Sequence record: ON645936.1
Source: Escherichia phage N2
Reading direction: 5' to 3' (one strand)
DNA: 64,000 nucleotides
Position numbers and translations under genes: made by a program. Under the pieces are notes generated by a model, which was not told where the DNA came from, did not search any database, and worked only from the letters and a program-made list of their open reading frames with translations. Below, piece after piece: positions 1 through 63,800 of this stretch. The stretch's first letter is position 1. Each line of letters opens with the position of its first letter.

Positions 1-2925
<2,925 letters not shown>

Positions 2926-4933: not shown

Positions 4934-4945
4934 TTGATTGATTGT

Positions 4946-4959
4946 GGGGCTTCGGCCCC
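4946..4959 (+). terminator. GC hairpin with UUCG tetraloop after gene 18
   Basis: GGGGC-UUCG-GCCCC; weak U tract, so may be a stability element rather than a terminator. Confidence 0.45.
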
Positions 4960-4976
4960 TATTCTCGAGGAAACAA

Positions 4977-5582
4977 GTGATTATTTCTAAGTTTGTTACA
5001 ATAAAACCAAGAAATCATTCAAAAATGTGGTCGACAATTCTAGGATATAAAGTATCATATCATGATACAGTATCTGTTCCAATAGAATTAATGCCAAAGA
5101 ATAGTAATAAAATAGTTGACGCTAAATGTGATTTGTGCGGTATTAAATTTAGTAGAAGCATTCAGCTTTTAAATAGAACACCTACACATGCATGTAGAAA
5201 ATGTAGCATTAAACAAGTTGCTATTAAAAATTCGGAAGTTCAATCCGGAATAAGCAGACCATGGCAAAGAGGCGATAAACACCCTCGATGGACTGGTAAA
5301 AGAAAAGAGTTTGCATTATATGCTAGTAGAGTTCATTCTATAACTAAGTCAGCTAAAATAAGAAAAATTTGGTCAAAATGGCCGAATGCTGATAAAATAG
5401 GAGTGTGCGGTGTAGAAGGTGCTTACCAACTCGATCATAAAGTATCTATCAAATATGGATTTGATAATTTAATTCCGCCGGAAATTATAGCAAGCGTAAA
5501 AAATTTAGAAATAATCACTTGGGAATCTAACCGAGAAAAGTCAAAAAGAAATAGCGTAGATCTTTGGGATTTACTAGAATGA
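4977..5582 (+). CDS. HNH-family homing endonuclease-like protein inserted between genes 18 and 19 (start uncertain: GTG 4977 with GAGGA SD, or ATG 5025)
   Basis: C-terminal HNH-like motif (..YQLDHKVSIKYGFDN..NLEIITWESNREK) plus Cys pairs CDLCG / HACRKC; absent from this position in T4 as I recall it. Confidence 0.7.
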   Translation: MIISKFVTIKPRNHSKMWSTILGYKVSYHDTVSVPIELMPKNSNKIVDAKCDLCGIKFSRSIQLLNRTPTHACRKCSIKQVAIKNSEVQSGISRPWQRGDKHPRWTGKRKEFALYASRVHSITKSAKIRKIWSKWPNADKIGVCGVEGAYQLDHKVSIKYGFDNLIPPEIIASVKNLEIITWESNREKSKRNSVDLWDLLE

Positions 5583-11574: not shown

Positions 11575-11588
11575 TCTTTGACGATTTA

Positions 11589-11612
11589 AGGGACCTTCGG
11601 GTCCCTTTAGTT
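11589..11612 (+). terminator. rho-independent terminator after gene 23
   Basis: AGGGACC-UUCG-GGUCCCU followed by T-rich run. Confidence 0.7.
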
Positions 11613-11622
11613 GTTTTTATGG

Positions 11623-11630
11623 TATAAATA
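11623..11630 (+). promoter_or_regulatory. late promoter TATAAATA (gene 24)
   Basis: Exact octamer after gene 23 terminator. Confidence 0.75.
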
Positions 11631-11657
11631 AATCATATAAACCAAAAGGAAAGCGCA

Positions 11658-15693: not shown

Positions 15694-16374
15694 TTATTTT
15701 AATGTTACGAAAGAAGAATTGCGTGTTTCACGAATTAAAACTGATCCATCACGATTAATGTAATAAATTAAGCTAAATAAAGTTTGGTGTGCTGACGCGT
15801 GTTCAAAACTAGTTGGGTGAGATTTCCAATCCGGAGTTTCAGCTATCCATTGATAAATCCACCAAGGAACAGTGCAGAATCCTGGATTTTTTCCAATCAG
15901 CTGAAGATTCGGACTAAAGTTTTCCGGAAGAGTAAATACAGACGGCTTTTCAGATTCAATAATCTCAGCTACAGCCTGTTCAAATTTTTCTTCAACAAAA
16001 GGAGTATCTTCAATCAAAACATCGGTATTTTCGGGAATTTTATCCATTTCTACTACTTCAATTTTAATATCAGATTTAACCGGAGAATCAATCAGAAGTG
16101 CTGCTTCTGGATTGACTTCTTCATCGTCATATTTTAACCCCTCTGCGGCATCAGCAGCATCAATTAAGTCTTTAATAGATAACCCATCAGTCTCTGGCAT
16201 AGGTTCACTAGCGAGCTTCTGGAGGGCTTCTTCAATATCAGCAACGATATTATCAAAAGATTTATTCTTTTTGACCTTTATACCAAACTGTTCAGCGTAT
16301 TCAGCTAATTTAGCTTTAGCTTCTTTGTTATCATCAAGAGCCTTCAGCTCTGCAATATAATCTTTATCTATCAT
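15694..16374 (-). CDS. inh: inhibitor of prohead protease (Inh)-like acidic protein
   Basis: 226-aa ORF between hoc and uvsW as in T4. Confidence 0.75.
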   Translation of the reverse strand: MIDKDYIAELKALDDNKEAKAKLAEYAEQFGIKVKKNKSFDNIVADIEEALQKLASEPMPETDGLSIKDLIDAADAAEGLKYDDEEVNPEAALLIDSPVKSDIKIEVVEMDKIPENTDVLIEDTPFVEEKFEQAVAEIIESEKPSVFTLPENFSPNLQLIGKNPGFCTVPWWIYQWIAETPDWKSHPTSFEHASAHQTLFSLIYYINRDGSVLIRETRNSSFVTLK

Positions 16375-16387
16375 AATATTTCCTCAG

Positions 16388-16395
16388 TATAAATA
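16388..16395 (+). promoter_or_regulatory. late promoter TATAAATA (uvsW)
   Basis: Exact octamer 30 nt upstream of uvsW ATG. Confidence 0.7.
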
Positions 16396-16424
16396 TAGAT
16401 ATATTTATTACATGGTATTTAGAC

Positions 16425-17936
16425 ATGACTGACATTAAAGTACATTTTTATGATTTTAGTCACGTGAGAATTGATTGTGAAGAAAGTACATTTCATGAAC
16501 TCCGTGATTTCTTTAGCTTCGAAGCTGACGGGTATCGGTTTAATCCGAAGTACAGATATGGCAACTGGGATGGACGAATCCGTCTTTTAGATTATAATCG
16601 CCTTCTTCCGTTCGGATTAGTCGGGCAAATTAAAAAGTTCTGTGATAACTTTGGCTATAAAGCCTGGATTGACCCGCAAATTAACGAAAAAGAAGAATTA
16701 TCAAGAAAAGATTTTGATGAATGGCTTTCTAAATTAGAAATCTATTCAGGCAATAAAAGAATTGAACCGCATTGGTATCAAAAAGATGCAGTGTTCGAAG
16801 GATTAGTTAATCGTCGTAGAATTCTTAATCTTCCAACATCCGCAGGTAAATCCTTAATTCAAGCTTTGCTTGCACGTTATTATTTGGAAAATTATGAAGG
16901 TAAAATTCTTATCATTGTTCCAACAACTGCTCTGACAACTCAGATGGCTGATGACTTTGTTGACTATCGTTTATTCAGTCATGCAATGATAAAGAAAATC
17001 GGTGGTGGAGCATCAAAAGATGATAAATATAAAAATGATGCACCAGTCGTTGTTGGTACATGGCAAACTGTAGTTAAACAACCAAAAGAATGGTTCTCAC
17101 AGTTTGGAATGATGATGAATGATGAATGCCATCTTGCTACAGGAAAAAGTATTTCATCTATCATATCAGGTTTAAATAACTGCATGTTCAAATTTGGTTT
17201 GTCTGGTTCATTACGTGATGGCAAAGCCAATATCATGCAGTATGTTGGAATGTTTGGTGAAATATTTAAGCCAGTAACGACTTCTAAATTAATGGAAGAT
17301 GGACAAGTAACTGAGCTAAAAATTAATAGTATTTTTCTTCGCTATCCCGATGAGTTCACTACTAAATTAAAGGGAAAAACTTACCAAGAAGAAATAAAAA
17401 TTATTACTGGGCTCAGTAAAAGAAATAAATGGATCGCTAAATTAGCTATTAAGCTTGCGCAAAAAGATGAAAACGCTTTTGTCATGTTTAAACATGTATC
17501 GCATGGTAAAGCTATTTTCGATTTAATTAAAAATGAATACGATAAAGTTTATTACGTATCAGGGGAAGTTGATACCGAAACCCGCAACGTAATGAAAACC
17601 TTAGCTGAAAATGGTAAAGGAATAATTATAGTAGCGAGTTATGGTGTATTTTCTACTGGTATTTCAGTTAAAAATCTGCATCATGTTGTTTTAGCGCACG
17701 GCGTTAAATCAAAAATCATTGTATTACAAACAATCGGTCGTGTATTACGTAAGCATGGTTCTAAAACAGTCGCAACAGTCTGGGACCTCATAGATGATTG
17801 TGGCGTTAAGCCAAAATCTGCTAATACGAAAAAGAAATATGTCCATTTGAACTATCTTTTAAAACACGGCATTGATCGTATTCAGCGCTACGCAGATGAA
17901 AAATTTAATTACGTAATGAAAACAGTTAATTTATAA
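16425..17936 (+). CDS. uvsW: UvsW RNA-DNA and DNA-DNA helicase
   Basis: 503-aa ORF; helicase motifs PTSAGKS and DECH; late promoter upstream. Confidence 0.95.
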   Translation: MTDIKVHFYDFSHVRIDCEESTFHELRDFFSFEADGYRFNPKYRYGNWDGRIRLLDYNRLLPFGLVGQIKKFCDNFGYKAWIDPQINEKEELSRKDFDEWLSKLEIYSGNKRIEPHWYQKDAVFEGLVNRRRILNLPTSAGKSLIQALLARYYLENYEGKILIIVPTTALTTQMADDFVDYRLFSHAMIKKIGGGASKDDKYKNDAPVVVGTWQTVVKQPKEWFSQFGMMMNDECHLATGKSISSIISGLNNCMFKFGLSGSLRDGKANIMQYVGMFGEIFKPVTTSKLMEDGQVTELKINSIFLRYPDEFTTKLKGKTYQEEIKIITGLSKRNKWIAKLAIKLAQKDENAFVMFKHVSHGKAIFDLIKNEYDKVYYVSGEVDTETRNVMKTLAENGKGIIIVASYGVFSTGISVKNLHHVVLAHGVKSKIIVLQTIGRVLRKHGSKTVATVWDLIDDCGVKPKSANTKKKYVHLNYLLKHGIDRIQRYADEKFNYVMKTVNL

Positions 17937-17950
17937 GGGCTTCGGCCCTT
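17937..17950 (+). terminator. hairpin after uvsW
   Basis: GGGC-UUCG-GCCC followed by TTT. Confidence 0.45.
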
Positions 17951-18192
17951 TGGAGAAAAAGATGTTACTAGGATTTAAACAATTTCTTTATGAAGCTTCT
18001 ATTGATGAATTTATGGGTAAAATTGCCTCTTGCCAAACATTAGAAGGTCTAGAAGAACTTGAAGCTTATTATAAGAAAAGAGTTAAAGAAACTGAATTAA
18101 AAGATACTGATGACATCTCTGTCAGAGATGCTTTGGCAGGAAAAAGAGCTGAATTAGAAGATTCAGACGATGAAGTAGAAGAAAGCTTTTAA
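17950..18192 (+). CDS. uvsW.1: UvsW.1 small acidic protein
   Basis: 80-aa ORF directly after uvsW, preceded by hairpin. Confidence 0.7.
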   Translation: MEKKMLLGFKQFLYEASIDEFMGKIASCQTLEGLEELEAYYKKRVKETELKDTDDISVRDALAGKRAELEDSDDEVEESF

Positions 18193-18247: not shown

Positions 18248-18478
18248 CTATAGCAAAAGTTGAGTTTCATTTAATTGTTCTTCCGAACTTTCTGAAACTG
18301 GTAGTTCTTTAATGTAATTATAGCAAGGCCCAGGATGTACAGGACCTTTGTCTGTTTCAACAACCAATGCAGAATCGATTGGAGTTTTACAGACAACACA
18401 AATCTTATCTGACATGATTGTCTCCTTTTGAATATAGTAATATTTATAAACCCATTTTAATCCGCATTTCTTGTACAC
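18248..18478 (-). CDS. hypothetical protein (T4 uvsY.-2 position), Cys-containing
   Basis: 76-aa ORF. Confidence 0.55.
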   Translation of the reverse strand: MYKKCGLKWVYKYYYIQKETIMSDKICVVCKTPIDSALVVETDKGPVHPGPCYNYIKELPVSESSEEQLNETQLLL

Positions 18479-18538
18479 GGATTAAGCAAGCTTCCATCTC
18501 TGCTAATAGTCGAAATACTTCTTTATAATCTGTCATAT

Positions 18539-18766
18539 TTACCCCATATCTCTCATATGCATATCAATGCCCATATCTTTAGAATAAAAATATTCATCAA
18601 GATATCCGGCAAATTTTCCTTTAATATAAAGGACATCTTCACCACATGGGTGGTCGGCCAGGATACGAATATCCTGACGCTTAAGATTATACTTTTTCAT
18701 TAAGAATTGAATTTCCGTTTCAAATTCTTCTTCATAATTAAAAGCATCATCAATGCTATATCTCAT
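18539..18766 (-). CDS. hypothetical protein (T4 uvsY.-1 position)
   Basis: 75-aa ORF; start overlaps uvsY stop. Confidence 0.6.
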   Translation of the reverse strand: MRYSIDDAFNYEEEFETEIQFLMKKYNLKRQDIRILADHPCGEDVLYIKGKFAGYLDEYFYSKDMGIDMHMRDMG

Positions 18767-36820: not shown

Positions 36821-37053
36821 AGTACGCCATACACCCTTTGTGCTTCAACTAATCCATCAAAATCCAATTTGAGATGTGTTATTTGATCACCATCACCTGG
36901 ATTCACAATTACTAATACTGAACGAGGAGTTTCGGTAATAACACGAACCGATGTTTCAGGAAATCGTTCAGAAACCTTATTTACCAATTCCTGTGCAAAT
37001 AGTTTAACTTTTTCTTGGAATTCTTTAACAGTAATCGGTTTTTCACTTAGCAT
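36817..37053 (-). CDS. hypothetical protein
   Basis: 78-aa ORF. Confidence 0.55.
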   Translation of the reverse strand: MLSEKPITVKEFQEKVKLFAQELVNKVSERFPETSVRVITETPRSVLVIVNPGDGDQITHLKLDFDGLVEAQRVYGVL

Positions 37054-37574
37054 GTTGATCCCAGCTCCTTACTTTCAACGTTTTTAACTAATTTGACAGA
37101 AACTAATTCAGCATCTTGAGTAATCATTACCGGACCTTCTTCATACTCTTCAAGATATTCTAGAGCTTTCTTTTTAGCTTCTTCCTTCGTATCAGTTTGA
37201 GCATAGATATAAAACATACAACCAGTAATACCTACTACTTTCCACTTAATTTCTTTATCAGTTTTAATTTCAAATTTACTTACAGAATCATCTTTTTGAA
37301 CTTCTTCGAAAAAAGAATATTCTAGCATATAAGCAATTGAAAACAACGGGCTAACTTTATAGGATTCACCCATTACATCAACAGCTTTATACCAACAATC
37401 ATCAATTTCGCGTTTAATGCTAATAACATTTTTCGCAGGATCTATTTTTACTTTAAATGAATTTTCCCCAATAAACTGGGCAATTCGTTTATTAGCCCCG
37501 CAAGTTTCATTAAAAATATCTTTATATCCAGCTTTAAAGCGATAAACCTTATCTTCTTCAAACCATTCGCTCAT
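37047..37574 (-). CDS. hypothetical protein
   Basis: 175-aa ORF with SD; early promoter upstream. Confidence 0.6.
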   Translation of the reverse strand: MSEWFEEDKVYRFKAGYKDIFNETCGANKRIAQFIGENSFKVKIDPAKNVISIKREIDDCWYKAVDVMGESYKVSPLFSIAYMLEYSFFEEVQKDDSVSKFEIKTDKEIKWKVVGITGCMFYIYAQTDTKEEAKKKALEYLEEYEEGPVMITQDAELVSVKLVKNVESKELGSTC

Positions 37575-37976: not shown

Positions 37977-39195
<1,219 letters not shown>

Positions 39196-39199
<4 letters not shown>

Positions 39200-42245: not shown

Positions 42246-43424
42246 TTAAAAATATTTTTTAAAACTCATCATAACTTTATCATCAACATCATTATCAATC
42301 TGTGCTACAAGGTAAGATGACAGTTCTACTTCTTGTGGTGCAGATTGAACATTATCAGAATTAAGGTATTCACGAATCCAAGGATATGGATGTTTAACCG
42401 GAGCATCGGTAATTGGACATGGAAGACCACACTGTTTCATACGAGATACAGTTAAGTAATCAATAAAGCTCCACATGCTATTTGTATTTAATCCAGGAAC
42501 ATCGCCATCTTTAAATAAATGAACTGCCCAATCTTTTTCTTGGCGGTTAACTTCCATGAAAATATCAACTGCTTCTTGTTCACACTCTTGAGCAATTTTA
42601 ACCCATTCATCACCATCAGTACCGGATTGAAGTTGACGAATAATATATTGAGTGCCTTTAAGGTGAAGCTGCTCATCACGTGCAATGAACTTCATAATCT
42701 TGGCATTACCTTCCATGATTTCCATGTTCTTATGGAAGTTAAAGGTACATGCAAAAGATACATAAAAACGAATAGCTTCTAAGGCATTAATAACGTGCAA
42801 ACAGAGGTAAAGAGATTTCATTAGTGCTCGTTTAGCTTCGGCTTCTTGTTTAATAGCTCGATTTAAACGAAAAACAGCATCAGGAGATTCTTTAGCTAGT
42901 TCTGTAAATTCTTTAGCATTTTCCCATTCACGGGTTTTAGTCAGAACATCATCATAATAGCGACCGATAGATTCAGCACGTTTCATAATAGCTTTATCTA
43001 GTACAATCTCATCAAATACCTTCGATGGATCAGTATAAAGATTTCGCATGATATGAGTATATGAACGACTGTGAATAGTTTCACTAAAAGTCCATGTAGC
43101 AACCCATGTATCAAGGCTTGGGTCTGAAATTAATGACATAAGTACAGCAGACGGCGCACGACCTTGAATACTATCAAGTAATGATTGATACTTCAGATTA
43201 TTAGTAAAAATATTTTGTTGATACTGAGGAAGCTTATTAAACTGTGCAGCATCCATCATCAAGTTTACTTCTTCCGGACGCCAGAAAAACGAGAGCGAAC
43301 GTTCAATAAGTTCTTCAAATACTCGATGCCGTTGAATATCATAACGCGCAATACCAAGACCTGAACCAAAAAACATAGGTTCTTTTAAAACATCGACCTG
43401 TTTAGTATTAAAAACTGTACTCAT
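42246..43424 (-). CDS. nrdB: ribonucleotide reductase small subunit, uninterrupted
   Basis: 392-aa continuous ORF with di-iron/radical subunit character. Confidence 0.93.
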   Translation of the reverse strand: MSTVFNTKQVDVLKEPMFFGSGLGIARYDIQRHRVFEELIERSLSFFWRPEEVNLMMDAAQFNKLPQYQQNIFTNNLKYQSLLDSIQGRAPSAVLMSLISDPSLDTWVATWTFSETIHSRSYTHIMRNLYTDPSKVFDEIVLDKAIMKRAESIGRYYDDVLTKTREWENAKEFTELAKESPDAVFRLNRAIKQEAEAKRALMKSLYLCLHVINALEAIRFYVSFACTFNFHKNMEIMEGNAKIMKFIARDEQLHLKGTQYIIRQLQSGTDGDEWVKIAQECEQEAVDIFMEVNRQEKDWAVHLFKDGDVPGLNTNSMWSFIDYLTVSRMKQCGLPCPITDAPVKHPYPWIREYLNSDNVQSAPQEVELSSYLVAQIDNDVDDKVMMSFKKYF

Positions 43425-45016
43425 TATTTTGTCCTGTAAACTAAATTTCCACAGTCCCAGATTCTTCTAAGACCATTTGCATAACAATTTTCTACTTCAG
43501 TTATTGTATCATCATAATTTTTAAGCTTGTTTTTAAGCTTATGTTTCATATAGCTTGAGCGGTGAAATACCTCTCCTTTATCGACGTACCAATAACATGG
43601 CTCAGAGATATGACTAAATTCCATGACAGAGTCATAAACATTTGATAATGTACTGCACCATCTTCGATTGCCATAAGATAGACAATTAATTCCTTTTAAT
43701 AATTTTGAGGCTCCTCCTACAACACAAACCCCTAATTTTGAACACATCCTTAAAAGTTCATCACCTGAGCTATATCTAGATTTACCGATAGAAATAATTT
43801 GAACTAACTCATTATTGTAATAAAGTCCTTTATACGTATGAGCTCCTGAGCAAAATCCTTGAAGATGATTCTTATTAATAAATTCTTTTGCCTCATCCTT
43901 ATTAACAAACCGTGCTTTGCATTTTCGGGCTGGTATTCTTTCTGATAATCCTAATTTATGCTTTATAATGGATTTCCAGATCTCTCTTTTTGTATCATCA
44001 ATCCATTCATTTTCGAAGATGTGAAGTAATTGAATTCCTTGTGCTTCACACATCTCTGTCTTCATCAAATGATAAGTTTCTTTAATTTTATCTGTTTCCT
44101 TTGACCCGCTAGAATGCCAATAAATTCCATCGTATTCTATAGCCAATTTTTTCTCAGGAATGTAAATATCTAATTCATACGGAGGAATAATTTTTCTAGT
44201 TTCTACGCAATCAAATCCTAGATCTAAAATGAATTGCTCTATAGAACTTTGAGTATAATGAACGTCAATTAGTCCTTTGGATGAAAGAGCTCTATAAGCC
44301 GTCATCCGAGAACAATTTGCTAATTGTTGTAGTTCTTCTATAGAAATTTTGTAATTGATTTTATCTAGTATATCATGATTAATATGACCGTTATTTTTAA
44401 TAGATTTTCCTATAGATGAATATAACGATGCCTTATATTCTTCAGTCCAATTTAATTTAGTCTTCTTAGATTTTTCGCGAGATTTTCTAGAATGCAGAAT
44501 ATCAACTGATTTACCGTTTTCTATAACTTTTCTCGCTTCTTTCACACTTTCTAATTGTGAATTATGCGTTACCCCATATCGTTCAATTAAAGTTTTTCTA
44601 TTTTTATTTCTTGAAATTTTTTGATGAGTTGTTCCATATTTTTCTAAAGAATTTTTGTGTTGAAGTTCAGACAAATATTTTTTATATTTTTCTTTTCCGC
44701 CAAAATTTGTATCACGGCTTTGAATTCTCTTATCCGCGAAAAATATCCCTGCGCAGGATTTACTACATGTTGCTGGAAATACACGTTTCTTTGCTGTTTT
44801 CAGAGAAATGAAATTTCCACAAACTGCACATTTTAGATCGTTAATGTCAATGCCTTCCATAATTTGGAACACATTGAGCTTAAAATCTATTCCATCAGTT
44901 AGAAGAGCTTTATCTTCTTCTGTTAGTCTAGATTTAAGTTTTTCTTCTCCAAATGGAAGAAACTTTCCGTTTTTGTATATATTATCAAACATAGCGTTAT
45001 TCTTAGTTAACCACAT
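43424..45016 (-). CDS. multidomain putative homing endonuclease: Cys-pair zinc ribbon, Lys-rich linker, Vsr/DUF559-like PD-(D/E)xK motif, unknown C-terminal domain
   Basis: 530-aa ORF between nrdB and nrdA; motifs CAVCGN..CSKSCAG and YELDIYIPEKKLAIEYDGIYWHS. Confidence 0.6.
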   Translation of the reverse strand: MWLTKNNAMFDNIYKNGKFLPFGEEKLKSRLTEEDKALLTDGIDFKLNVFQIMEGIDINDLKCAVCGNFISLKTAKKRVFPATCSKSCAGIFFADKRIQSRDTNFGGKEKYKKYLSELQHKNSLEKYGTTHQKISRNKNRKTLIERYGVTHNSQLESVKEARKVIENGKSVDILHSRKSREKSKKTKLNWTEEYKASLYSSIGKSIKNNGHINHDILDKINYKISIEELQQLANCSRMTAYRALSSKGLIDVHYTQSSIEQFILDLGFDCVETRKIIPPYELDIYIPEKKLAIEYDGIYWHSSGSKETDKIKETYHLMKTEMCEAQGIQLLHIFENEWIDDTKREIWKSIIKHKLGLSERIPARKCKARFVNKDEAKEFINKNHLQGFCSGAHTYKGLYYNNELVQIISIGKSRYSSGDELLRMCSKLGVCVVGGASKLLKGINCLSYGNRRWCSTLSNVYDSVMEFSHISEPCYWYVDKGEVFHRSSYMKHKLKNKLKNYDDTITEVENCYANGLRRIWDCGNLVYRTK

Positions 45017-47352: not shown

Positions 47353-48084
47353 ATGAAATCTGGAATATATGCTATTATAAACACTAAAACTAATAAGCAC
47401 TATATAGGAAGTGCAATTAATTTTGAAGAACGATGGAAACGACACTTTAAAGATTTAGATAATGGAAATCATCATTCAATAAAGCTGCAGCGTTCTTATA
47501 ATAAGCATGGTAAAGATGCTTTCGTATGTAAAATCATAGAAGAACTTCCATACGAAAAATCTATCATTATTGAACGTGAAAATTATTGGATGCATGAATA
47601 TGACTCAAAGGAAAATGGGTATAATATAGCAGACGCATCGTTTGGGGATACCTTATCTCATCACCCAAGAAAGCAAGAAATCCTTAATAAAATTTCAAAT
47701 GCAATTAAAAATAATAATTCAAAATTATCACCAGAAGAACTTAAGCAAAAACATGGTAGACCTAGAGACATCAAAGGTAAAACTATAGAAGAACACTATG
47801 GGTTAGATCGTGCTATAGAAATAAGCAAAAAGTTCCAAGAAAGAAACGCTGCACTTAATATGAAAGGCATCAATAATCCATATTACGGACAGACGCATAC
47901 CAATGAAGTTAGAAAACGAATTTCTGACTCACAGAGAGGTAAAAAGAAACCCCATCTAAGAGTAAGTATAGATGGGGTAGAATATCCAACAATAGCAGAA
48001 GCTGTGCGTCAAACCGGAATAAGCAGAAAACTTATATCTAAAAGATGCGCTCTAGATTGCTGGGAATCATATTTATACTGCTAA
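47353..48084 (+). CDS. free-standing GIY-YIG homing endonuclease of the I-TevI family
   Basis: 243-aa ORF; N-terminal [46 protein letters not shown] closely parallels I-TevI catalytic domain; TATAAATA late promoter and AGGAG SD upstream. Confidence 0.85.
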
Positions 48085-48341: not shown

Positions 48342-48653
48342 TTATACCGCCATTTTTCCTTTCAAGACACCGTGGGACTGATAATCTTTGAGAACGAAAT
48401 CTTTAGGCCTGAGTTTAAGAATGTATTCCAATTGTTCTTTAGTAGAAAGATAACGGAATTTATAAGGTAATCCGCCTATTACCAGTTCACAAAGCTCTTT
48501 AGATTCACGACGCAAAATTTCTTTACATTGTTCTACGTGATTCATATAGATATGAGTATTACCACCAGAAAATATCAAATCTCCTGGAATAAGATTACAC
48601 ATCTTAGCTACAATATGAACTAACGCAGCATATGATGCAATATTAAATGGAAG
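48342..48653 (-). CDS. td: thymidylate synthase, exon 2
   Basis: Encodes LPFNIASYA... ThyA C-terminal region; joins in frame to exon 1 after intron removal. Confidence 0.9.
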   Translation of the reverse strand, partial: LPFNIASYAALVHIVAKMCNLIPGDLIFSGGNTHIYMNHVEQCKEILRRESKELCELVIGGLPYKFRYLSTKEQLEYILKLRPKDFVLKDYQSHGVLKGKMAV

Positions 48654-48907
48654 CATTATGTTCAGATAAGGTCGTTAATCTTATCCCGGAATTATATCCA
48701 GCTGCATGTCACCATACAGATCAGACTATATCTCCATCTTGATGAAGCAAGATGTCTATCGTTTCGAGTCACTTGACCCTACTCCCCAAAGGGATAGTCG
48801 TTAGGCATTTAGTTCAAAAGAACATTTAGCACGGGATTGTCTACTAGAGAGGTTCCCCGTTTAGATAGATTACAAGTATAAGTCACCTTATACTCAGGCC
48901 TCAATTA
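48654..48907 (-). ncRNA. group I self-splicing intron in td, ORF-less (about 254 nt)
   Basis: Starts UAAUUGAGGCCUGAGUAUAAGGUGACUUAUACUUGUAAUCUAUCUAAACGGGGAACC after exon-1 ...CUUGGGU, ends ...CUGAACAUAAUG before exon 2, matching remembered T4 td intron ends. Confidence 0.85.
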
Positions 48908-49456
48908 ACCCAAGAACACGTCAACACTTCTTTGATACCACTGCAAATCCAAATAGCCATTACGCACATTAAACTGATAGAACATATGACAAGGCGGTAA
49001 TGCCATTTGCTTGAGTTCAGCTGGATTCCATGCAGAAACAACTTGACGTCTATCATTTGGCAGTTTTTTAATACGATCAATAACTTCTACAATTTGGTCT
49101 ACACCACCAAAATCACGCCACTGTTTTCCATAAATTGGACCAAGTTCACCACTATGATATCCTAAATCTTTTGCTTGATTTTCGTAATTTTCATCCCAGA
49201 CTGTTTTGCCTTGAATTAATGAATCGTGTTGAATTAATCGTAAATCATTGACATTTGTGCTTCCTGATAAAAACCAAAGTAGCTCAGCAATGCAAGCTTT
49301 CCAGGCGAGCTTCTTAGTTGTTACTGCAGGAAAACCTTTAGTTAAATCCCAGCGTAATTTAGTACCGAACAAAGCAATTGTTCCTGTGCCTGTTCGGTCA
49401 TCAGTTTCATAGCCATTTTCAAAAATGTCTTTAATTAAATCTTGGTATTGTTTCAT
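48908..49456 (-). CDS. td: thymidylate synthase, exon 1
   Basis: 183 codons ending ...QRSVDVFLG, followed by in-frame UAA at intron start. Confidence 0.9.
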
Positions 49457-49501: not shown

Positions 49502-49864
49502 TCAATACGGTTTAGCATCAAATTTTCTTTCGATTTCAGGAGTGAAATATAATTCTTTACCACGTTTGGAAAAACGACCAATAATATGATAATTATTCTC
49601 ATCAAACGTGATATTGCCAATATCCATAGCTTTCAACCAAATATCGATATTTCTATCTAGTTTTATATCAAAATTCCAATACGGAGAACTATTACCGAAA
49701 ATACTGCAAGCGGATTCAGTGCAATAACTGCTGCTATAAATCTTGTCTTTGGGAACTACTAATTGATAGACGCCTTTAATAAACTGAGGACCCTGCCATT
49801 TTGGTTGTTTCGCGTCTTTTTCTAATAGAATAGGGTAATAATTAAAGTTCATATTTTCCGCCAC
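49502..49864 (-). CDS. hypothetical protein inserted between frd and td
   Basis: 120-aa ORF with no recognisable motifs. Confidence 0.6.
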   Translation of the reverse strand: MAENMNFNYYPILLEKDAKQPKWQGPQFIKGVYQLVVPKDKIYSSSYCTESACSIFGNSSPYWNFDIKLDRNIDIWLKAMDIGNITFDENNYHIIGRFSKRGKELYFTPEIERKFDAKPY

Positions 49865-52717: not shown

Positions 52718-52790
52718 TTTTATTTCCTTTTTAATTTAATTAACAGTTGGTGCTATGACGATGTATGACCTCATAGCTGGTCAGTGAGAT
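52718..52790 (-). promoter_or_regulatory. gene 32 translational operator region
   Basis: ...UUAAUUAAAUUAAAAAGGAAAUAAAAUG immediately upstream of gene 32 start. Confidence 0.6.
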
Positions 52791-52792
52791 AA

Positions 52793-52818
52793 TTATAATC
52801 TATTTATAATAAGCAATT
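52793..52818 (-). promoter_or_regulatory. promoter cluster upstream of gene 32: MotA box AATTGCTTA, -10 TATAAT and overlapping TATAAATA
   Basis: Motifs read on minus strand. Confidence 0.55.
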
Positions 52819-60815: not shown

Positions 60816-63800
60816 ATGGCTACTTTAAAACAAATACAATTTAAAAGAAGCAAAACCGCAGGTGCACGTCCTGCTGCTTCAGTATTAGCCGAAGGTGAAT
60901 TGGCTATAAACTTAAAAGATAGAACAATTTTTACTAAAGATGATACAGGAAATATCATTGACTTAAGCATTTCTGCTGGTGGTAATATCAGTGGAAATAT
61001 CACTCAAACCGGAGATTATACACAGACTGGAAAATTTAATTTAATTGGTCCGCAAATTGTAGCAAGCGGTGGATATATTGAGTTTAATTATCGTACGACT
61101 GGAAGCGGCTCGTGGTCTGGTCAACACGCTGCAAAAGCTCCAATTTTTGTAGATTTGAGCTCCGCTCTTTCCACATCTGAATATAATCCTATAATTAAAC
61201 AGCGCTTTAAAGATGGAACTTTTTCTGTTGGTACGTTAGTAAATGAAGGAAGTTTTAAGATTCATTATATCAATGAATCGGGAACTTCAAAATACTGGAC
61301 ATTTCGTAGAGATGGTGGATTTGTTGTTGATACAGGAAGTTTGACAGTATCAGATGGTAATATTTCTGCATCAGGCAATATTAACTCGGCAACTGGATTT
61401 GTTTCTGCACCACGCGTCAATACAAAAAATATTAACTTGAGTTCTAAAACCTTTATCACGAATAATGACGCGGGTTATGACATTGTTTCTTTACCTACCT
61501 GGGTTTATAACCCACCGGCCGATGGTTCCGACAATACTACAAATGGATTGAACTATTTGCGTAAATTACGTGCATCAAGTGCAGCAAGTATTTTCCATGA
61601 AATTGCCGATTGCCGAAAAGGTAAGCCACAAGAAATTTCTTGGTGGACAGGCGTAGGCCCGGAATCTTTCCTATGGGCGTTTGATATCTCCGGTCGTATT
61701 ACTGCAGGTAAATCTATTTCAGTAGGTCTTCCTGATAACGGTGCAAATGGACGTTATCCTTTAGATTCTGCCATTTCTATCGGTATTGCAATTGGTGATA
61801 ATGACACCGGTATTAAATGGGTCCGCGATGGCGTTTATGACCTGATGGCTAACGGTATTTCATCCGCTACCATTTTGAACAACGGTATTAATAGTACTAA
61901 AAAATTGATGGTTGGTTATAGCCGCGATTCTGGTACTACTTGGGATTACCCAAATAACAACCAAGCAATGTTTACTGCGCGTACCGATGTTGATGGTAAT
62001 AATAACGGCGATGGTCAGACTCATATCGGTTATAACAGTAATTCTAAAATGTATCACTATTTCCGTGGCACGGGTCGTATGTCTGTTAGCATGGGCGATG
62101 GACTTCTTGTTGAGCCAGGTATTTTAGATATTAAAACTGGGTCTAATAGAGTTGCTATTAGAGCAGATGGTACATTTGACTCAACTCAACGTATTTCAAT
62201 GCGTACGGGCTTGTTTTTAAATGGTGATGATAATACCAATGCTTTGTCATTTAAAGCTCCTTCCGGTGTAGATGGTACCAAAACTATTAACTGGGATGCA
62301 GGCACTCGTAACGGACAGAATAAAAATACTGTTTCAATTAAAGCATGGGGTAATGCCTTTAACTCAGTTCCCGGTATTAGAGAAACTGTATTTGAAGTAT
62401 ATGATTCACAAGGTTATTATTTTTATTCACAACGCCAGCGCCCAGAAGGTTCTGAAACTGTTGGGCCCGTTGTAACCCAGTTCAATGGACCAGTTAATGC
62501 TAACGGCTCTATTAGCACTGCAGGAAATCTTAAAGTTGATGGTTTAAGCACTTTAAACGGTAATGTTACAATGAAGAACGGCTTGTTTGTCCAAGGTGGT
62601 TCTTCTATTACCGGACAAGTAAAAATTGGTGGAACAGCTGATGCATTAAGAATTTGGAATGCCGAATACGGTGCTATTTTCCGTCGCTCAGAAACAGCAT
62701 TACATATTATCCCGACTCCTAAAGATGCTGGTGAAAGTGGTGGAATAAGTAATCTCCGCCCATTAAGTATTAGTCTTAATAATGGTATGGTACAAATGCG
62801 TCATTCGGTTACATTAGGCGACGATGGATTAGGCGGCAATATGGTTACTATTGATAATGATAGTAAACTTGTTGTGATAACTTCTAATACCAGATTAAGC
62901 CCTAATTTCCGCATGCAAATAGGCCACTCGTCTTATATTGATGTTGAATGCACTAACTCTGTTCGCCCGGCAGGTGCTGGTTCGTTTGCTTCACAGAATA
63001 ACGAAAATGTTCGTGCACCGTTCTATATGAATATCGACCGTGGTGATAATAGTACTTATATTCCAATTTTGAAGCAACGTTACGTTCAAGGAGATAGTAC
63101 TTATTCTATTGGCACCTTAATTTCTCAAGGAGACTTCCGCGTACATTATCACCAGGGCACTAGTACTACCGGAACTGATATAAGTTGGGAATTCCGTCGT
63201 ACTGGTGACTTCCGCACACCTGGTAAAATTATTGCCGGTGCTGCTACTCTTGGCACTGATGGCAATATTACGGGTGGTTCTGGTAACTTTGCTAACTTAA
63301 ACAGTACAATTGAATCACTTAAAACTGATATTGTTTCAAGTTATCCTATTGGAGCTCCAATTCCATGGCCAACGGATACTCCTCCTGACGGTTACGCTAT
63401 TATGGAAGGTCAGACTTTTGATAAGTCTGCATATCCAAAGCTAGCTGTTGCATATCCTAGCGGTGTTATTCCAGATATGCGCGGGCAGACTATCAAGGGT
63501 AAACCAAGCGGTCGTGATGTTTTGAGCGCAGAAGCAGATGGTGTTAAGGCTCATAGCCATAGTGCATCTGCTTCAAATACTGACTTAGGCACTAAAACCA
63601 CATCAAGCTTTGACTATGGTACGAAGAACACTAATAGTACTGGTGCTCACACTCACTCTGTAAGTGGTACAACAAGTGCTGCTGGTAACCACGCTCATCA
63701 CTTAGGTCTACTATTAGTTATCGGCGATGATGCTTTGTACGGTTATACAACCATTGGTAACAGTCTACCTAGAACACTTGACTGGCTTGACAAAGAGACA

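Follow-up and report, generated by a model that had tools for sequence, protein, structure and literature searches.

The inh-uvsW junction of phage N2

The stretch of DNA considered here, referred to throughout as the window, comprises 64,000 nt of Escherichia phage N2 (ON645936.1), a T4-like phage of the genus Tequatrovirus. When aligned with the T4 genome (NC_000866), the window is colinear with the region from ~95.6 kb to ~159.3 kb, and with ~97% identity to its best database matches it represents a distinct mosaic phage. The following features lie at and around the junction between inh and uvsW (window coordinates and strand):

15694..16374, minus strand: inh (hoc.1), encoding a minor head protein of 226 aa, an inhibitor of the gp21 prohead protease (PHROG 1051, E 4e-102)
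16375..16424, no strand: inh-uvsW intergenic spacer of 50 bp as defined by the ORF coordinates, the proposed vacant segE site
16380..16386, minus strand: putative Shine-Dalgarno sequence of inh, TGAGGAA, with GAGG 8 nt before the ATG, read from the sequence
16388..16395, plus strand: T4-type late promoter box TATAAATA facing uvsW, an exact match, 29 nt ahead of the uvsW ATG
16402..16409, minus strand: late-promoter-like box AATAAATA (plus-strand letters TATTTATT) facing inh, with one mismatch, read from the sequence
16412..16430, plus strand: 19 bases replacing 635 bp of T4 (the segE ORF, its leader and a 2-bp spacer), from blastn and pairwise alignment
16425..16556, plus strand: diverged 5' patch of uvsW (codons 1-44) in the form of the segE-less haplotype, the presumed SegE target region, delimited by alignment with T4
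16425..17936, plus strand: uvsW, encoding a DNA/RNA-DNA helicase of 503 aa (Pfam UvsW_N, E 7e-43; ResIII, DEAD, Helicase_C)
17962..18192, plus strand: uvsW.1, a separate ORF encoding 76 aa from an internal ATG of ORF 17950..18192 (Pfam UvsW-1, E 1.7e-30)

The two genes are divergent and adjacent, and no endonuclease ORF separates them: no ORF of at least 40 aa lies wholly inside the 50-bp gap, and neither the ORF list nor tblastn revealed, in N2, a GIY-YIG ORF at this place. What N2 carries at this locus is a target allele and not the endonuclease element itself. The first-pass annotation had described a gap of 50 bp with a late promoter in it, and its coordinates prove exact, with TATAAATA at 16388..16395 (+). 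Ahead of N2 uvsW, in the place taken by GAGGA or AAGGA in other genera, a clear Shine-Dalgarno sequence is absent, so the details of how uvsW is expressed from this allele are uncertain. With regard to the 3' end of the gene, the T4 RefSeq entry NC_000866 still shows uvsW as a single CDS of 1764 bp (112677..114440) with a note on 'sequence discrepancies'; the separate uvsW (503 aa) and uvsW.1 (76 aa) of N2 correspond to the corrected T4 organisation, and this split has been described (PMC1524935).

Comparison with T4 at the junction

The first-pass annotation had also placed segE near uvsW in T4. The T4 record indeed places it there and nowhere else, between inh (111327..112007, minus strand) and uvsW (from 112677, plus strand), in the form of a free-standing GIY-YIG homing endonuclease gene of 618 bp (112057..112674, plus strand). 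By blastn and pairwise alignment, the two genomes part at 16411/16431 in N2 versus 112044/112680 in T4, and the left breakpoint of the 19-base N2 segment falls right after TATTTATTAC. A tblastn search with T4 SegE as the query found no homologue anywhere in the 64-kb window. Flanking homology, of the kind that double-strand-break repair requires, is present to the left and right of the insertion: over 718 bp on the left the identity is 97-100%, with the same range for inh up to the junction, and the right flank starts at 74% for 132 bp before rising to 95-100%. The first 37 bases of the spacer, with both promoter boxes included, are the same in N2 and T4; in T4, then, segE stands behind this very late promoter, in agreement with a review that places the segE promoter in the non-coding DNA upstream of the gene (PMC2988022). 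Wherever segE is present, it directly follows TATTTAT(A/T)AC, at a point downstream of the two boxes, both of which stay intact.

How common is the compact junction? A 221-bp query across the N2 junction matched 606 records of the INPHARED phage collection, of which 441 have it uninterrupted (at least 80% query cover in one match), and in ~165 only the left 72 bases matched, up to the segE insertion point; segE itself is present in 159 INPHARED records, in all of them at 95% identity or more. A UvsW-based search of IMG/VR returned 31 distinct loci, mostly from other T4-like genera with 71-79% aa identity in UvsW. There, inh and uvsW are 49-58 bp apart in 28 loci, and four contigs (L007-L010) have a 50-bp spacer identical to that of N2. 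Three of the 31 loci (L011-L013) carry, at the same position between inh and uvsW, SegE-like ORFs with 47-65% aa identity to SegE, and since these phages belong to other lineages, the association of the SegE family with the site is old. The SegE-like ORFs lie at 1171..1914 in L011 and at 1887..2501 in L012 and L013; in the latter two the N-terminal part seems to be without a standard ATG start, possibly a sign of decay. On these counts most relatives have the compact junction, which is probably also the ancestral state, and it is T4, not N2, that is the exception. The segE-less state itself is already known, as the relatives RB30 and RB52 and the SegE-driven exclusion were described in 1997, and in this respect the N2 junction is ordinary.

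A face-to-face pair of late-promoter boxes

Octamers of the TATAAATA type occur 19 times in the N2 window, compared with 8.85 +/- 2.8 expected. The copy at 16388..16395 is no chance match because an exact TATAAATA faces uvsW, identically placed, in all 28 compact IMG/VR junctions, including those of genera with 71-79% identity; it is also found in T4 and in L011-L013. Six bases downstream and in the same register, TATTTATA stands in 23 of the 28 compact loci, and read on the minus strand it is an exact TATAAATA facing inh; N2 and its closest relatives have the one-mismatch version of this inh-facing box, TATTTATT, at 16402..16409. The two opposed boxes of N2 form a perfect 9-nt inverted repeat. 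As an arrangement, the face-to-face pair TATAAATA-N6-TATTTATA/T is kept in 28/28 compact loci from several T4-like genera (L007-L037, about 2465..2490). Existing records point the same way: in that of phage ASO78A both boxes are annotated as late promoters, the inh-facing one with one mismatch, and in that of phage fPS-65 the plus-strand box is so annotated. UvsW is known to be expressed from a late promoter, after which it shuts down R-loop-dependent origins (PMC3016281).

Judging from the usual geometry of late promoters, which puts the transcript start ~6 nt past the box, transcripts are predicted to start near 16402 (plus strand, uvsW) and 16395 (minus strand, inh), so that their 5' ends would share a few bases, with both promoters presumed to be active. 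A terminator scan found no terminator-like site inside the 50-bp gap, no Rfam family matched it, and its predicted RNA fold is unremarkable (z = -0.57). A scan for sigma-70 promoters gave no more sites than in shuffled sequence and is uninformative for a region transcribed late.

The diverged 5' patch of uvsW

Immediately to the right of the insertion point, the uvsW genes of N2 and T4 differ far more than in the flanks, where the identity is about 96-100%. Over codons 1-44, 34 of 132 nt differ (26%, i.e. 74% identity), affecting 22 codons synonymously and three non-synonymously, while the next 132 nt (44 codons) contain just six nucleotide differences. Patch divergence of this sort beside the site is what one usually sees where a homing endonuclease has its target. 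A T4-type patch (at least 95% identity) is found in 158 records versus the 159 with segE, near-equal counts from which we infer that they are the same phages, and it accordingly appears that the first ~130 bp of uvsW move, in a recoded version, together with segE. Which of the two patch types is ancestral cannot be told from outgroups, because the types are 74% identical to each other and each is 64-75% identical to every one of the 31 outgroup loci.

The pairing of segE with the T4-type patch is not strict: UFV10 (L038), PD112 (L039) and CJY920 (L040), phages without segE, carry hybrid patches (about 895..1030), which are of the window type for the first ~85-120 nt from the junction and of the T4 type beyond. 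Recombination breakpoints must therefore have fallen inside the diverged patch. Kadyrov reportedly mapped, in 1997, the SegE cut to the 5' end of uvsW in RB30 and saw T4 DNA cut less efficiently. Could the first ~130 bp of uvsW be a transferable 'immunity patch' that moves together with segE? The counts of 158 and 159, the divergence of the patches at the level seen between genera, and the hybrids, in which just the ~85 nt next to the junction stay of the window type, all prompt this idea, which we put forward tentatively and regard as somewhat more doubtful than not. If it were true, the natural hybrids would map the determinants of SegE specificity to uvsW codons 1-28, and the N2 window would carry a fully susceptible allele.

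Alternative explanations for the empty junction

A compact junction could in principle also be a secondary deletion scar, left after the near-precise loss of an ancestral segE or SegE-like gene, such as closes the life cycle of a homing endonuclease. Several details of the uvsW leader fit such a history: the SegE-like gene of L011 (247 aa) is preceded by TATTTATTAC-ATGG, so that L011 and N2 have in common the six bases ACATGG after the promoter pair; UvsW of L011 starts MTDIKVH like that of N2, as opposed to MDIKVH in T4; and the N2 leader has lost the Shine-Dalgarno sequence kept in other genera. Against this, a junction of 49-58 bp with the same promoter geometry recurs in 28 of 31 loci across genera and is most simply taken as ancestral, and the end of the N2 leader (...TTAGACATG) is also found in the distant L037 (AATTAGACATG), a locus that looks never to have been occupied, so ordinary drift explains the leader sequence of N2. 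Remnants of segE were not detectable in the window by tblastn either. On account of the geometry conserved across genera and the leader end shared with L037, a deletion origin was judged unlikely.

Even less needs to be conceded to the two other readings. That the spacer might hold a further functional element beyond promoters and leaders (a small RNA, a terminator or a small gene) is suggested by its perfect 9-nt inverted repeat and by a conservation that is strong for non-coding DNA; however, the repeat amounts to no more than the TATAAATA boxes facing each other, the conservation is limited to these boxes and the inh Shine-Dalgarno sequence, and the negative Rfam, terminator, ORF and folding results for the gap given above make such an element very improbable. 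As for segE having gone missing through an assembly or sequencing artefact, no point in favour was found, and 441 independent phage records with a closely matching uninterrupted junction, the identical 50-bp spacer in four IMG/VR contigs and the intact reading frames of both inh and uvsW leave this explanation with practically no credit. An unoccupied homing site, by contrast with all three, remains the preferred reading of the N2 junction.

The wider endonuclease complement and other differences from T4

Is the inh-uvsW site the only one at which N2 departs from T4 in this manner? The endonuclease complements were compared by means of the alignment of the window with T4, tblastn searches with T4 endonucleases and family scans. 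The earlier suggestion that the set of homing endonucleases differs from that of T4 was confirmed by the whole-window alignment and by tblastn: segD, segE, segG, mobE, the I-TevI ORF and the nrdB intron with I-TevIII are all absent from the 64-kb window. The sites and genes concerned are these:

4938..5582, plus strand: ORF of 214 aa between gene 18 (tail sheath) and gene 19, within a 647-bp insertion relative to T4
11586..11645: empty segD site between genes 23 and 24, 60 bp versus 789 bp in T4 (alignment with T4)
43424..45016, minus strand: 'homing endonuclease' ORF of 530 aa (PHROG 3339, E 3e-151; weak Pfam MTES_1575 nuclease hit)
47353..48084, plus strand: free-standing gene for a GIY-YIG/NUMOD3/I-TevI-DNA-binding protein of 243 aa, 46% identical to T4 I-TevI over its full length
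48342..49456, minus strand: td, with a group I intron without an ORF at about 48702..48917 (Rfam RF00028, 72.6 bits)
52781..52815: empty segG site between genes 32 and 59, 35 bp (alignment with T4)

In addition, nrdB of N2 is intron-less, the 600-bp intron of T4 (with I-TevIII) being missing at 42749. The 530-aa ORF fills the gap between nrdB and nrdA, where T4 has nrdB.1 and mobE, and as a Hef-type endonuclease has been reported to replace mobE in phage U5 (PMC2988022), this ORF may be of the same type. The 243-aa I-TevI-like gene sits between nrdA and td and occurs in just 26 phage records: eight are of Escherichia/Shigella phages (seven distinct phages) at 98-99% identity, and 18 are of Klebsiella T4-like phages at 90-93%, where it likewise lies beside td. 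The pairing of a free-standing endonuclease with an ORF-less intron is known as 'collaborative homing', which the layout of the I-TevI-like gene and the ORF-less td intron in N2 would seem to resemble. The 214-aa ORF shows, by eye, CxxC pairs and an HNH-like C-terminal motif; it belongs to PHROG 5104 (function unknown), with a weak match to a homing-endonuclease PHROG, and of the 502 records that matched, 69 contain the 647-bp insertion, those of T6 and PD112 among them. Altogether, the set of selfish endonuclease genes in N2 differs from that of T4 at eight or more loci.

Differences of other kinds are scattered over the window as well, the following being insertions or extra sequence relative to T4, all of unknown function:

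18449..18549: 101 extra bp between uvsY.-2 and uvsY.-1 (alignment with T4)
37047..37574, minus strand: ORF of 175 aa between cd.2 and cd.3 (PHROG 3710)
38879..39199, minus strand: ORF of 106 aa beside pseT (PHROG 2364)
49502..49864, minus strand: ORF of 120 aa between td and frd (PHROG 1928)

Tail-fibre gene 37 is strongly diverged from T4 in its distal part (60962..63676), with 70-78% identity in blocks and two stretches (1287 bp and 172 bp) lying outside the blastn alignment; its sequence suggests a receptor specificity different from that of T4.

Predicted SegE homing and marker exclusion

What, then, would an empty junction mean for N2 in a mixed infection? According to PMC2330249, SegE cleaves the hoc.1(inh)-uvsW region of the segE-less phages RB30 and RB52, and it homes with an efficiency of almost 100%, the flanks being co-converted; Edgell's review likewise names uvsW as the SegE target (PMC2988022). 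The first-pass annotation had considered the difference in endonucleases useful for predicting marker exclusion between N2 and T4, a link that fits well with the published cleavage and homing (PMC2330249; PMC2988022). On all the above grounds, we hold it highly probable (roughly 90%) that N2, a Tequatrovirus phage, has at this junction the segE homing site in its unoccupied form. That the allele is sensitive to SegE is expected, on the assumption that its RB30-like organisation has the same consequence.

The sequence of events could be imagined as follows. The two overlapping late boxes placed face to face in the 50-bp spacer would drive the divergent genes inh and uvsW, such that late in infection transcription by gp55-RNA polymerase would begin near 16402 for uvsW and near 16395 for inh/hoc. 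T4 and about one in four of its sequenced relatives have segE inserted just downstream of the promoter pair, in the uvsW leader, where it would make use of uvsW's own late promoter. N2 has neither segE nor the recoded T4-type patch; upon mixed infection with T4, a SegE cut would thus be expected close to the 5' end of N2 uvsW, and with the break repaired from the T4 copy, the progeny would preferentially inherit the T4 inh-segE-uvsW markers. N2 would in other words be a potential recipient in segE homing, and its inh-uvsW markers would be expected to be locally excluded in crosses with T4, which may be of use in annotation, in the design of phage crosses and in predicting mosaic boundaries.

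Comparison with known systems

The T4 inh-segE-uvsW locus (NC_000866, 111327..114440) is the occupied counterpart of the N2 junction. The flanking genes are the same, and uvsW is ~97% identical beyond codon 44; by contrast, T4 has 635 bp (segE) at the site where N2 has 19 bp, and its UvsW starts MDIK in place of the MTDIK of N2. The closest functional parallel is the hoc.1(inh)-uvsW region of RB30 and RB52 (Kadyrov et al. 1997, cited in PMC2330249), which, as far as the citing source describes it, is of the T-even type with inh and uvsW adjacent and without segE, as in N2, and offers, again like N2, homologous flanks on either side of the T4 segE insertion. Further parallels are provided by SegF beside gene 56 and SegG beside gene 32, with T2 as the related phage (PMC2988022): there, too, a free-standing GIY-YIG gene lies beside its target and is absent from a related phage, polymorphism is clustered at the insertion, and local marker exclusion is expected. 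The segE site differs from both in its gene pair, in lying within a divergent late-promoter region and in that the endonuclease gene would borrow the promoter of its own target.
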